53,052 bases of DNA. Source: Candidatus Staskawiczbacteria bacterium. GTDB taxonomy: Bacteria; Patescibacteriota; Minisyncoccia; Minisyncoccales; Staskawiczbacteraceae. A program made the position numbers and the translations under genes. The DNA lies in assembly GCA_963778905.1 (NCBI GenBank), contig CAVZWH010000007.1, forward strand, positions 1 through 53,052, given 5' to 3'. Shown piece after piece: positions 13,126-50,445 of this stretch (position 1 is its first letter; each line of letters opens with the position of its first letter). The notes below the pieces were generated by a model, which saw only the letters and a program-made list of their open reading frames with translations, was not told the origin of the DNA and did no database searches.

Positions 13126-15838
13126 ATTTTTTAGCTTTTGCTAATTTTGGCCTTTCCTGAATTCTTGGCAAAATTTTTGGCGTTTCAAAAATAATTTTTC
13201 CGTCATCTGCATCAATTAAAATTCTGCTGCCTTCTGCAATTTCATTGGTGACTATTTTAATTGACAAAGGATCCAAAATTAATCTTTGAATCACTCTTTT
13301 TAGCGGACGCGCTCCCAAATTTGGATCAAATCCTTCTTTCACCAAAAGCTCCTTTGCGCTTTGTGAAATTTCAATTTTTATTTCTTTGGCTGCCAAGCGC
13401 TTTTCAACTTTTGACAATTCCAAATCAACAATTTTTTTAATCTGTTCTTTTTGCAAATAATTAAATATCACAATTTCATCAATTCTGTTCAAAAATTCCG
13501 GGCGAAATGCGTCTCTCAACGAATCAAATATTTTTTCTCTCATTGATTCCCTTTCTGCCAATTCTTCTGTGGTGCTAAATCCAAGCGAAGACATTTTGTT
13601 AATAAAATCCGAGCCCAAATTAGAAGTCATTATAATAATTGTGTTTTTGAATGAAACTGCTCTGCCTTTTGAGTCTGTTAATCTGCCGTCTTCAAAAATT
13701 TGCAGTAAAATATTAAAAACATCCGGATGAGCTTTTTCAATTTCATCTAACAACAAAACAGAATACGGCCTGCGTCTTACTTTTTCTGTTAATTGACCGG
13801 CTTCCTCATATCCAACGTATCCTGGCGGAGAACCGATTATTTTTGAAACAGTGTGGCGCTCCATATATTCAGACATGTCCAATCTTATCATTGCTTTTTC
13901 GTCATCAAACAAAAATTCTGCCAAAGCCCTGGCTGTTTCGGTTTTTCCAACTCCTGTAGGTCCCAAAAATAGAAAAGATCCCAATGGTTTATCTTCTTCT
14001 GAAATTCCGGCTCTTGCCCTTCTTATTGCTCTTGAAATTGCTGAAATTGCTTCCTCTTGACCAACCACTCGCCTGTTCAGCGTGCCCTCCATTGTTTCTA
14101 ACTTTTTTGCTTCTTCTGTAATCAAGCGCATAACCGGAATTCCGGTCCAACGCGAAACAACTTTGGCAACTTCTTCCTCGGTCACTTCTTCTTTCATTAA
14201 TCTGTGCTCTTTTTGTATTTTTATTAATTTTTGTTCTATGGCAGCCAATTCTTTTAACAATTCCGGAATTTTTCCATATTTTATTTCAGCAACTTTTTCC
14301 AAATCAGCTTCTCTTTGGGCAATTTCTGTCTGATAAGAAAGATTATCAATTTTTTCTCTGATATCTTTTATTTTATTAATCAATTCTTTTTCAGCTCCCC
14401 ATCTTAATCTCAATGCTTTTGTTTTTTCATTCAAATCAGCCAATTCCCTGGAAATTACTTTGAGCCGTCTTTCAGATCCTTTTTCTTTTTTTAACGCCTG
14501 CTTTTCAATTTCTAATTTTGTAATTTCCTCGTTAAATTTTTCCAACTCCTGCGGGTCGGATTCGTTTTCTAATCTCAAAGCCGATGCCGCTTCGTCCATC
14601 AAGTCAACTGCTTTGTCCGGCAAAAATCGGTCAGCAATATATCTTGAAGCCAAATCAACCGCGGCCTTGATCGCCGAGTCCTTTATTTTTACTCCGTGGT
14701 GCAATTCATATTTTTCTTTGATTCCCCGTAAAATTGCGGTGGCGTCTTCGGCGTTCGGCTCCTGCACATAAATCGGCTGAAATCTTCTTTCCAAAGCAGG
14801 ATCTTTTTCAATATATTTTTGATATTCTTTCAAGGTTGTAGCTCCAATTGCCCTTAATTCTCCGCGAGACAAAGCCGGCTTTAACAAATTTGAAGCATCA
14901 ATTGCTCCCTCGGCGGCTCCCGCTCCAACCAACGTATGCAGCTCGTCAATAAACAAAATATATTTTCCAGCAGCTCTGTTCACTTCTTTTAGCAAGGCCT
15001 TAATTCTTGTTTCAAATTCTCCTCTGTATTTTGTTCCGGCAATTATGGCCCCCAAATCCAAAGAAATTATTTCTTTATCTTTCAAAAATTCCGGCACATT
15101 TCCGCGCGCAATTCTTTGCGCAAACCCTTCCACAATTGCTGTTTTTCCAACTCCGGCTTCTCCAATTAAAACCGGATTATTTTTTGTTCTGCGCGAAATT
15201 ATCTGCATTAATCTGCGTATTTCATTATCTCTGCCAATTATCGGATCAATTTTTCCTGCAGCTGCCAAGTTAGTTAAATTTCTTGTATATTTTTCTATTA
15301 CCTGATATTTTGCTTCAGGTTCTGCGTCTGTAATTCTTTGACCGCCTCTTATCTGCGACAAAATTTTCATAACTGCCTCGTAATCAAGTTTTGAATTTTT
15401 GAAACTATTTGCCTCGGACCCAAAGGGTACCCCCGCCAAAAAATTAATTTTTTCCAAAATATCTTTTGCCGTAGATTTTGTGTCCACTAAAGCCAAAAAT
15501 AAATGCTCAACTGAAATAAATTCGTCGTTCATTTTTATTGCTTCCTGCCTGGCTCTGTCTAAAACTTTTGCCATATCCTGCGTTAAATAAAACTGACCGA
15601 AAGCCTGTTGAGCAGCAATTGTCGGAATTTTCGCAATTTGCGTATCAATTTTTTTGGCTAAGGCATCTGCATCAATTCCAAGTTTTTGCAAAATTGTAAT
15701 TACAATTGAGCCTTCCTGCAAAAGCAAAGCAGACAACAAATGCAAGGCATCAATTTGCGCCTGCCCTTTTTCCTGAGCCAATTGCTGAGCCTGCATTAGC
15801 GCATCCTGAGCTTTATTTGTAAAATTATTTCCATTCAC
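13124..15838 (-). CDS. clpB: ATP-dependent chaperone ClpB
   Basis: Two AAA+ domains (GEAGVGKT/FIDELH; GPTGVGKT/LLDEIEKAH), coiled-coil M domain, Clp-N domain. The GTG start is supplied by the MITE end. Confidence 0.96.
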   Translation of the reverse strand: MNGNNFTNKAQDALMQAQQLAQEKGQAQIDALHLLSALLLQEGSIVITILQKLGIDADALAKKIDTQIAKIPTIAAQQAFGQFYLTQDMAKVLDRARQEAIKMNDEFISVEHLFLALVDTKSTAKDILEKINFLAGVPFGSEANSFKNSKLDYEAVMKILSQIRGGQRITDAEPEAKYQVIEKYTRNLTNLAAAGKIDPIIGRDNEIRRLMQIISRRTKNNPVLIGEAGVGKTAIVEGFAQRIARGNVPEFLKDKEIISLDLGAIIAGTKYRGEFETRIKALLKEVNRAAGKYILFIDELHTLVGAGAAEGAIDASNLLKPALSRGELRAIGATTLKEYQKYIEKDPALERRFQPIYVQEPNAEDATAILRGIKEKYELHHGVKIKDSAIKAAVDLASRYIADRFLPDKAVDLMDEAASALRLENESDPQELEKFNEEITKLEIEKQALKKEKGSERRLKVISRELADLNEKTKALRLRWGAEKELINKIKDIREKIDNLSYQTEIAQREADLEKVAEIKYGKIPELLKELAAIEQKLIKIQKEHRLMKEEVTEEEVAKVVSRWTGIPVMRLITEEAKKLETMEGTLNRRVVGQEEAISAISRAIRRARAGISEEDKPLGSFLFLGPTGVGKTETARALAEFLFDDEKAMIRLDMSEYMERHTVSKIIGSPPGYVGYEEAGQLTEKVRRRPYSVLLLDEIEKAHPDVFNILLQIFEDGRLTDSKGRAVSFKNTIIIMTSNLGSDFINKMSSLGFSTTEELAERESMREKIFDSLRDAFRPEFLNRIDEIVIFNYLQKEQIKKIVDLELSKVEKRLAAKEIKIEISQSAKELLVKEGFDPNLGARPLKRVIQRLILDPLSIKIVTNEIAEGSRILIDADDGKIIFETPKILPRIQERPKLAKAKK
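15416..15433 (+). repeat. 18-nt micro-hairpin repeat, in frame in clpB (GVPFGS)
   Basis: GGACCCAAAGGGTACCCC. Confidence 0.75.
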
Positions 15839-15969
15839 CCCGTTAGAAGTCTATCTTAATATAACAAAAAGTTAACTTTAGATAGACCTTGTTTACTTTA
15901 CTATTCCCCGTTATTACCGAGCAGAAAAAATTTAAATAAAATTTTTTCTGCCCAAGACTTCTAACGGGG
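15838..15969. mobile_element. MITE-like element, 132 bp, 15-bp TIR, 4-bp TSD
   Basis: CCCCGTTAGAAGTCT...AGACTTCTAACGGGG flanked by TTCA (15834-15837) and TTCA (15970-15973). Confidence 0.85.
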
Positions 15970-16013
15970 TTCATACTTTATTTATTACCATATTTATAAT
16001 ACGTTTTCAAGGC

Positions 16014-50347: not shown

Positions 50348-50404
50348 AGTTATTATACATAATAGCACAATCACATAAATTTTGAAGTCCCATTTTACTC
50401 ACAG

Positions 50405-50445
50405 CAAAAAACCGCCGGACCCAAAGGGTGCCCCGCGGGTTTTTG
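50405..50445 (-). terminator. Terminator after tatD carrying a micro-repeat copy (50417-50434)
   Basis: AAAAAACCGC-CGGACCCAAAGGGTGCCCC-GCGGGTTTTT. Confidence 0.65.

Follow-up and report, generated by a model that had tools for sequence, protein, structure and literature searches.

A 17-nucleotide repeat, probably mobile, that adds short loops to core proteins in a genus of Staskawiczbacteria

How do six short, closely similar hairpin-like sequences come to lie in one stretch of a bacterial genome, four of them read through in frame by genes for core proteins? The stretch, called the window here, comprises 53,052 nt (positions 1–53,052 of contig CAVZWH010000007.1, assembly GCA_963778905.1, Candidatus Staskawiczbacteria bacterium) and is contig C7 in a 31-contig, 741-kb assembly of 36 % GC, labelled G000; G019 is its sister species, and labels from G004 to G041 denote other species in the same genus. 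The six sites are, with a probability that we put at about 0.8, copies of an ultra-small, non-autonomous mobile DNA repeat. A sequence-only reading of the window had proposed a minimal mobile hairpin adding loops to core proteins, and this proposal was supported by filled and empty alleles at orthologous sites in five species, by the polarity of the FtsZ and ClpB sites and by filled and empty palindromes in other bacteria.

All six sites were verified by direct reading and form one family, fitting G-R-CCC-loop-GGG-Y-R-CCCC once oriented on one strand. Four lie in genes whose products were confirmed with Pfam as ClpB, FtsZ, TopA (topoisomerase I) and an IorA-like thiamine-diphosphate (TPP) enzyme. 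Copy 1 (15416–15433, plus strand, GGACCCAAAGGGTACCCC) is antisense within clpB (13124–15838, minus strand) and is translated as GVPFGS in the linker joining the N-domain to NBD1. Copy 2 (28474–28503, minus strand) is sense within ftsZ (27691–28638, minus strand); its core 17-mer GACCCGGAGGGTACCCC occupies 28483–28499, a 9-nt tandem duplicate GGGTATCCC occupies 28474–28482, and the block GGA CGA CCC GGA GGG TAC CCC GGG TAT CCC encodes GRPGGYPGYP. Copy 4 (38510–38530, plus strand, CGACCCACAAGTGGGTACCCC) is a long-loop variant of 20–21 nt, sense within topA (37923–39941) and giving the peptide DPQVGTP; in its 20-nt reading (38511–38530, GACCCACAAGTGGGTACCCC) the stem reaches 5 bp thanks to an extra A-T pair, with the loop CAAG. 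Copy 5 (46956–46972, plus strand, GGCCCAGGGGGCACCCC) has the compensated stem GCCC/GGGC, is antisense within the iorA-like gene (46272–47918, minus strand) and is translated as GGAPWA.

The other two copies are intergenic. Copy 6 (50417–50434, plus strand, GGACCCAAAGGGTGCCCC) lies between a tatD-like gene and leuS as the loop of an intrinsic-terminator-like hairpin (A-run 50406–50411, stem CCGCC 50412–50416/GCGGG 50435–50439, T-run 50440–50444) that folds at −17.5 kcal/mol as RNA, and the whole 40-nt terminator, motif included, was found again at C15:28948 of the same genome. Copy 3 (33858–33874, plus strand, GACCTAAAGGGTACCCA) is degenerate, with two mismatches, and has a signal-peptidase gene on one side and a GC-rich insert on the other. 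This GC-rich stretch (33890–34440, about 550 bp) sits in a 720-bp spacer between the signal-peptidase and peptidyl-tRNA-hydrolase genes and holds an 88-residue ORF (open reading frame; 33953–34219, minus strand) with no Pfam match; it looks like a foreign insert in the 36 % GC genome, with copy 3 directly beyond its left edge.

A count of the motif against a shuffled background had been set beforehand as a check, and it came out far above chance in both the window and the genome. GGGTRCCC gave 10 strand-matches in the window against 0.76 expected by shuffling, with none of 100 shuffles reaching 10, and GACCCAAAGGG occurred 19 times in the G000 genome against 0.1 expected under a third-order Markov model. 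Genome-wide, 34 copies with at most two mismatches to GACCCAAAGGGTRCCCC or its long-loop form were found, together with two more diverged ones; the reversed control pattern had no match in this genome.

The family consensus is G-R-CCC-(RRR or 6 nt)-GGG-Y-R-CCCC, and its 17-nt core, GACCC-AAA-GGGT-R-CCCC, consists of a 4-bp stem, a purine triloop and an RCCCC tail. In a sequence logo of 63 copies from two genomes, information extended from position −2 (A in 73 %) to +18 (G in 59 %), and the flanks further out were just A-rich. Nearly all variation among copies was due to transitions; the loops were AAA, AGA, GAA, AAG and GGA, and position 13 was A or G. In the 20-nt subfamily the triloop is swapped for 6 nt (GCAAGC, ACAAGT, AAATGT, GACAGC or ACGAGC), whose end bases pair in four of the five types, giving a 5-bp stem and a tetraloop. 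The compensatory change from ACCC/GGGT to GCCC/GGGC seen in the iorA-like copy belongs to a real pattern of covariation: among distinct variants, positions 2 and 12 formed A-T (AU) pairs in 36, G-C pairs in 4 and no pair in 2, and the extra pair of the 20-mers was GC in 3 and AU in 2. Double-sided covariation cells numbered 6 against 1.7 in shuffles, a value reached in one of 500 shuffles. A search for a wider stem family found no other stem sequence with the RCCCC tail. Direct reading shows all six frames of the 17-mer to be free of stop codons.

The nature of the event was deduced from orthologous sites. The filled allele was exactly 12 nt longer than the empty one in 75 of the 105 spanning orthologous alignments, and in 55 of the 66 with well-kept flanks; the 20-mer long-loop form added 15 nt. 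Boundaries in the genus showed that a new block of 17–18 nt, from −1/+1 to +17/+18, takes the place of 5–6 old nt. The repeat thus displaces a few target bases, frequently those at the tip of a hairpin; the size of the event varies slightly in non-coding DNA, and it is not the clean insertion of 18 or 21 nt that had been supposed. Likewise, indels of six to seven residues had been expected, but the net gain is four or five residues (12 or 15 nt), since 17–18 (or 20–21) nt replace 5–6; relative to the sister species the TopA copy added five residues and the IorA-like copy four. The FtsZ copy added eight because the 9-nt tandem duplication is also present. The multiples of three arise because in genes of this Candidate Phyla Radiation (CPR) genus only frame-keeping outcomes, +12 and some +15, appear. 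The replaced 6-mers in the genus were A-rich or ACCCAA-like (mean 2.57 matches against a random 99th percentile of 2.17), with no fixed target. A contiguous 12-nt insert and a target duplication of ACCC or CCC were also tried and were rejected, since by inspection each gave at least three mismatches at the cleanest filled/empty pair.

The share of such events in protein evolution was measured between the sister species, for which the complete G019 genome was compared with G000 (393 reciprocal protein pairs, median identity 81 %). Insertions of four residues numbered 17 and 21 in G000 and G019, respectively, against 10 and 10 of three residues and 6 and 9 of five residues, and about 14 of the 17 four-residue insertions of G000 relative to G019 were this repeat.

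Polarity could be read at two sites in the window. At the FtsZ site, 21 species read K-[A D/N/H]-KK (GCA GAT). G000 has ten residues there (+24 nt, including the 9-nt tandem duplicate), G041 has seven at the same codon (+15 nt), and G011, a species with no intact copy now, has the decayed copy GGACCAAAGAGCCAACCC (+12 nt); G022 reads GGACCCAAA with the length unchanged. The site was therefore hit in three species, perhaps four, and the species with insertions are not mutual closest relatives. In comparison with Bacillus subtilis FtsZ (2RHH), the insert faces a gap of eight residues in the segment that follows the NTDAQAL helix, a surface loop away from the GTP-binding loops. At the ClpB site, the majority of the other 21 species show a turn of two residues, mostly Ser-Gly (TCG GGT), where G000 has GGG GTA CCC TTT GGG TCC, 18 nt for 6 (net +12); several other species carry four-residue insertions at this site that are not the motif. 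It follows that the filled state is derived and that permissive loops are hit repeatedly.

Every genome of the genus encodes two FtsZ paralogues, a 315-residue form beside ftsA and a form of about 530 residues with a Lys-rich N-terminal extension. They are 38 % identical, and in G000 both hold a repeat copy (27691–28638 and C3:3361–4944).

The same 17-mer is multicopy in unrelated bacteria. The GTDB genomes were scanned with one genome per species and at least 116 stretches matched, but only multicopy genomes were counted as evidence across phyla; copies were counted at up to one mismatch, and the reversed control gave 0 in all of them. The multicopy taxa belong to the Acidobacteriota, Chloroflexota, Planctomycetota and Bacillota, with a provirus in addition: Candidatus Solibacter sp. 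Chersky.3_40 (137 copies), Solibacteraceae SbA4 (67) and co3_64 (28), Roseiflexaceae OTE_25 (52), Peptococcaceae MFD04492 (17) and nzgw226 (11), Planctomycetaceae MFD04434 (11), Terriglobia SRVP_16 (9) and a 21-kb provirus (IMGVR_UViG_3300049215_000811; 4). In the Acidobacteriota the AGA loop predominates. Acidobacteriota of peat and soil, obtained from sample types that also yielded the genus, have the repeat as well; SPRUCE peat metagenome-assembled genomes (MAGs) of both groups are an example.

Copies in these genomes lie in the loops of palindromes and terminators, beside heptamer arrays (GAATCCA, GCATTGG) and, in the Roseiflexaceae, nested within an older antisense copy; perfect adjacent stems of at least 5 bp accompanied 12 % of the hits and 1.7 % of random positions. 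In a second viral record, GGGCGAGG/CTCGCCC encloses a copy as its loop. The clearest filled and empty states were found in a Planctomycetaceae MAG with about 16 empty palindromes ACTGCTGA(T/G)CCG-AAGCG-GCTCAGCAGT: five or six filled forms read ACTGCTGATCCG-GACCCAAAGGGTACCCC-GCTCAGCAGT against the empty ACTGCTGATCCG-AAGCG-GCTCAGCAGT, an exchange of 5 nt for 17 nt (net +12) without a single flank mismatch. Further +12 pairs had the empty forms GGCAGGCG-AAAGC-GCCTGCC in Solibacter, GGGCGAGG-CTCCC-GCCGAG in another Planctomycetaceae MAG and AGAATCCAGA-ATCCA-GAATCCAG in the heptamer array of the provirus. Other pairs differed by 13 nt, with four bases replaced (for example in the Roseiflexaceae and Solibacter), and a few by 15 nt.

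The provirus record, classed as such by IMG/VR and with 66 % GC, has each of its four copies flanked by GAATCCA heptamer runs. Its spacers are GAATCCA heptamer arrays in inverted orientation, and four of them hold the 17-mer. In Peptococcaceae MFD04492 the 17-mer is fixed within a larger repeat, CATCAAATGGCC-[17-mer]-GGCACATTCGATG, followed by a second small hairpin, GCCCAGAGGGC; no empty copies of this larger repeat were found there, nine of nine being filled.

These data bear on the suggestion that each copy is a footprint left behind when a larger, unseen mobile element excised. The reading ACCC-AAAGGGT-ACCC does resemble a duplicated target around residual bases, and the likeness of the replaced 6-mers to ACCCAA exceeds chance, as given above; however, ACCC is missing from most empty sites. 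Neither of the two complete motif-rich genomes yielded a larger element bounded by such ends, and the neighbours of paired copies are ordinary genes. Moreover, the repeat is constant across phyla, and the AGA-loop, GCAAGC-loop and GC-compensated subfamilies are each dispersed, which fits copying of the repeat itself. We consider a footprint origin quite improbable.

Within Patescibacteria the repeat is confined to this genus: it was absent from the 16 other genera of the order and from 400 other Patescibacteria genomes (320 genera). Sixteen of the 25 species carried it at up to one mismatch, with 1 to 25 copies each, and nine did not. On a ClpB + FtsZ tree (a quick tree with limited support) the basal species have no copies, G000 has 22 and G019 has 25, and the crown is patchy. 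When every copy of G000 and every one of the 36 copies that G019 has of its own were aligned to the other genome, the rpoC copy alone was common to both, within 36 nt identical in the two; if the displaced secA pair is included, 1–2 of about 35 sites are held in common. The copies of G013, G022 and G021 are likewise almost all private. The copies are recent and species-specific.

In one loop of the C-terminal region of secA both sisters have a copy (G000 C1:25438, G019 C4:12272), offset by 12 nt with equal total length, which could represent two independent hits or one shifted copy. At one codon of an LTA-synthase-like (lipoteichoic acid synthase-like) gene, the 20-nt GCAAGC-loop form in G000 (C24:35671) faces the 17-nt AAA-loop form in G022, G019 being empty; this suggests that the site was hit again or that one subfamily converted the other. 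Terminators of G019 (C8:4501, C18:11806; compare G000 C13:8982) contain another small hairpin, CGACGCGA(A/T)AGCGTA(C/T), and the one at G019 C18:11806 sits precisely where G000 has a repeat copy, both being 18 nt. The motif-free basal species G015 has palindromic families of its own, cattGGGGTGTCSGACACCCCaatg, ggaaaatTTCACGGCCGTGAAattttcc and GAGGTCSGACCTC, with 5–10 copies each (e.g. C2:2812, C1:89238, C1:125784).

A lineage-specific, over-represented oligomer of this kind might instead be a recognition sequence kept by selection or molecular drive, either a DNA-uptake signal (as in Neisseria and Haemophilus) or the binding site of a chromosome-organizing protein, its enrichment being due to uptake or retention of the DNA in which it lies. 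The restriction to one genus within Patescibacteria, the occurrence in both orientations, in terminators and in conserved housekeeping genes, the 36 nt identical around the rpoC copy and the second half of the motif, GGGYRCCC, a degenerate palindrome such as a dimeric protein would bind, all speak for this. Uptake sequences, too, are over-represented oligomers that lie in both orientations, in terminators and in preferred frames of coding regions. The DNA uptake sequences (DUS) of Neisseria and the uptake signal sequences (USS) of Pasteurellaceae are, however, 100–1000 times denser, arise by substitution and keep their positions among close relatives. Uptake sequences number hundreds to thousands, about one per 1–2 kb, whereas the present repeat has a density of just about one copy per 20–25 kb and is lacking in nine of the 25 species; positions are not conserved between sister species, and copies come with a stereotyped +12 indel, not by substitution. 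In addition, genomes of unrelated phyla and a provirus have multiple copies of the identical sequence, which lie there in hairpin loops and heptamer arrays. A retained uptake or binding signal is therefore improbable.

Copies showed no avoidance of coding DNA, 64 of the 72 in G000 and G019 (89 %) being coding against a coding density of 91 %. Three intergenic copies form the loops of near-identical terminators. Within genes of the two genomes, 46 copies are sense and 18 antisense. About 30 host genes remain open through the copy. Most hosts are core genes: secA, rnhA, enolase, murD, clpB, both ftsZ paralogues, topA, sodA, tig, rpoD, rnj, rpoC, yidC, prfB, murE, a PilB-type ATPase, rpsP, a PBP2, dnaJ, rplW, rpsE, adk and others; host names were taken from translations, with the Pfam check made on the window genes.

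The peptides encoded were less diverse than first thought. They had been described as unrelated, but genome-wide the sense copies are limited to two frames, each reading xPKGxP: 22 and 24 copies read DPKGTP and (G/R)PKGYP, respectively, and none was in the third frame, TQRVP. With G at position 13, the reading GPKG-Cys-P was never found. A rare codon as the cause of the missing frame was rejected; AGG is not rare (6.8 per 1000), and for this reason we attribute the frame filter to selection for Pro/Gly-rich turn peptides.

Could such selection have made the whole pattern, with the loop xPKG(T/Y)P chosen repeatedly and the likeness of the DNA secondary? All 46 sense copies of the two genomes fall in the two xPKGxP frames, as this would require. 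DPKGTP and GPKGYP are, however, the same DNA shifted by one base, and the codons are GC-rich and atypical for a genome of 36 % GC (CCC 5.3 and GGG 6.1 per 1000). The 18 antisense and eight intergenic copies retain the DNA and not the peptide, and the same DNA is non-coding in other phyla. We regard this explanation as extremely unlikely. The view that the DNA rather than the peptide is conserved is upheld, since terminator loops and other phyla have the same 17-mer too, and it occurs in both orientations and several frames.

Several points weigh against a mobile repeat. No moving enzyme was found by partner-gene profiles, by gene-content subtraction or among the neighbours of copies, and we know of no transposition chemistry that removes 4–6 target nt. 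Polarity was assigned with outgroups at two sites only (FtsZ and ClpB) and follows from parsimony elsewhere. The hairpin is marginal, at −4.0 kcal/mol as RNA and −2.1 as DNA (z about 0 against shuffles), although the long-loop form folds at −9.6 kcal/mol; because the hairpin folds no better than shuffles, the evidence for pairing is covariation and not energy, and the four GC-compensated copies could come from one variant master, in which case the covariation would represent few independent events. Lone hits in other phyla are within chance, estimated at about 140–330 over 596 Gb. In public sequencing runs the window was present only as shallow, short contigs from one probable source sample, in which within-population polymorphism was unreadable.

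Candidate partner genes were profiled across the 26 genomes of the genus, and none of the four families followed copy number. The HUH Y1 transposase PF01797, which would correspond to the HUH/TnpA partner suggested from the window, gave no match in the motif-bearing G000, its motif-rich sister G019, G021, G016 or G004 and was present in the motif-free G014, G009, G010, G011 and G015. Reverse transcriptase (PF00078) was absent from G019 (25 copies) and G013 (22 copies) and present in motif-free species. Small GIY-YIG nucleases (PF01541) occurred in all genomes whatever the copy number. An RNase-H-like YkuK protein (PF04308), which came from gene-content subtraction, was missing in G022, a species with 13 copies, and five motif-free species had it. 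The 67 genes found in G000 and G019 but not in the motif-free G015 include a membrane-anchored staphylococcal-type nuclease, an ASCH/DUF3850 protein and a SWIB protein, and no recombinase was among them. No parent element was found around the paired copies in G019, whose neighbours (gyrB, an M20 amidohydrolase, valS, hsp20 and ruvC) are ordinary genes. As for a structural-RNA donor, Rfam and ARAGORN gave only one tRNA-Leu in the window, and half-motifs were without clear excess.

If the repeat is mobile, the following course may be proposed. The genus probably acquired it horizontally, and it would then have multiplied separately in the species. A new copy would take the place of a few target nucleotides, usually 4–6 and often an existing hairpin tip, with no target duplication. 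Where 5 nt are replaced the net gain would be 12 nt, and in a genome that is 91 % coding the copy could survive within a gene as a four-residue surface loop. Later selection on the peptide would keep mainly Pro/Gly-rich readings, such as DPKGTP and GPKGYP in sense and GVPFGS in antisense. The hairpin, as single-stranded DNA or RNA, would presumably be the feature recognized by the moving machinery. Movement may be catalysed in trans by a not-yet-recognized enzyme; alternatively, ordinary replication and repair proteins may bring it about by copy-choice or short-patch conversion, with other copies serving as template.

A bolder version of the mobile-repeat reading, which we offer tentatively and hold to be doubtful, is that the 17-mer is among the smallest mobile DNAs, exchanging with a target tip of 4–6 nt through machinery common to many phyla and with no dedicated transposase, that it is a main source of new loops in essential proteins of the CPR genus and that its presence in Acidobacteriota of the same sample types could be a sign of DNA passing between these episymbiont-type bacteria and their hosts or neighbours. 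Shared machinery, if true, would explain why one and the same sequence does well in the CPR genus, in a provirus and in Acidobacteriota, Chloroflexota, Planctomycetota and Bacillota.

Among known systems, SDR1–8 of Nostoc punctiforme and relatives were reportedly described by Elhai et al. in 2008 (Genome Res 18:1484) as 'very small mobile repeated elements'. By analogy, the present element would be a nano-sized mobile repeat whose nearest kin in kind appear to be these cyanobacterial small dispersed repeats (SDRs). Both form tens of near-identical, very short copies with no gene of their own and no known transposase. Both insert precisely and without target duplication, the filled and empty sites here showing a loss of 4–6 target nt, and copies of both lie in hairpin loops, in tandem heptamer arrays, nested in each other and occasionally in genes. 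Papers that cite this work speak of mobile repeats of very small size, with one of them inserting precisely within the HIP1 octamer (PMC3116915, PMC5861425, PMC4390886), and report none from cyanobacteria outside Nostocaceae (PMC5861425). The differences are that the core here is 17 nt and not 21–27 nt, that insertion removes 4–6 target nt, and that the sequence is identical across at least five phyla and a provirus, whereas SDRs are reported from Nostocaceae only (PMC5861425). In this genus, furthermore, about 89 % of copies are translated. No indexed paper contained the 15-mer sequence of this repeat.

The Rickettsia palindromic elements (RPEs), according to what Ogata et al. reportedly described in 2000, are about 100–150 bp long and add 30–50 residues. 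RPEs are confined to Rickettsia and relatives and show no fixed replacement of a few target bases. Like the present repeat, they are palindromic, lie in frame in essential genes of a reduced genome, are translated as surface segments and lack a transposase; the core here is 17–20 nt with a 4–5-bp stem and not about 100–150 bp. The GC clusters of yeast mitochondria and the 'byp' elements of Magnusiomyces are 30–60 nt long; the former duplicate target bases, and the latter are bypassed by the ribosome. They too are short GC-rich hairpins that spread in an AT-rich genome and land in protein genes, but the copies here are simply translated.

Repetitive extragenic palindromes (REPs) and REPINs are associated with RAYT (HUH Y1) transposases (PMC3116915), and REPs tagged with GTAG or CGTC have been described (PMC3733652). 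They share with the present repeat a short hairpin, a conserved unpaired tail beside the stem and proliferation within genomes. REPs are 20–40 nt, extragenic, tagged with GTAG or CGTC and have a RAYT gene alongside, whereas here the tail is RCCCC, 89 % of copies are intragenic and PF01797 is absent from motif-rich genomes. Miniature inverted-repeat transposable elements differ in that this repeat has no terminal repeats past its 4-bp stem, produces no target-site duplication and loses target bases. Retroelements (diversity-generating retroelements, retrons and group II introns) differ in that the repeat-rich G019 and G013 have no reverse transcriptase of PF00078.

If confirmed, a selfish repeat of 17 nt shapes ordinary protein evolution in ultra-small bacteria, and about 30 core proteins per genome, among them SecA, RpoC, RpoD, FtsZ, ClpB, TopA, enolase and the ribosomal proteins S5, S16 and L23, would carry a recent four-residue loop of one origin. 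The repeat accounts for most four-residue insertions between the sister species. It would offer a countable system for a question posed in 2008, namely how repeats far too small to encode or bind a classical transposase move; sequence and outcome (17 nt for 4–5 nt) are fixed, and filled/empty pairs are numerous in several phyla, cultivable groups among them. In practice, copies give false 'lineage-specific insertions' in alignments and trees of marker proteins, and a common 17-mer can mislead binning and the detection of horizontal transfer. The kind of element is known but barely studied; what is distinctive here is the identity across phyla, the stereotyped replacement and the measurable share in the evolution of essential proteins.

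Counts of 14-mers revealed other repeat families in the G000 genome, one of them, GCTAGTCTAGAGCC, occurring about 20 times and a longer repeat containing CTTTGGAGGCG...GGGCGTAAATCGCA occurring 11 times. Elsewhere in the window, two ORFs on the same strand and 3.7 kb apart (494–4171 and 7906–11583) are each exactly 1225 residues long. BLASTP shows their sequences to be unrelated (E 0.5), and each has the look of a large surface protein rich in Thr, Ser and Asn.

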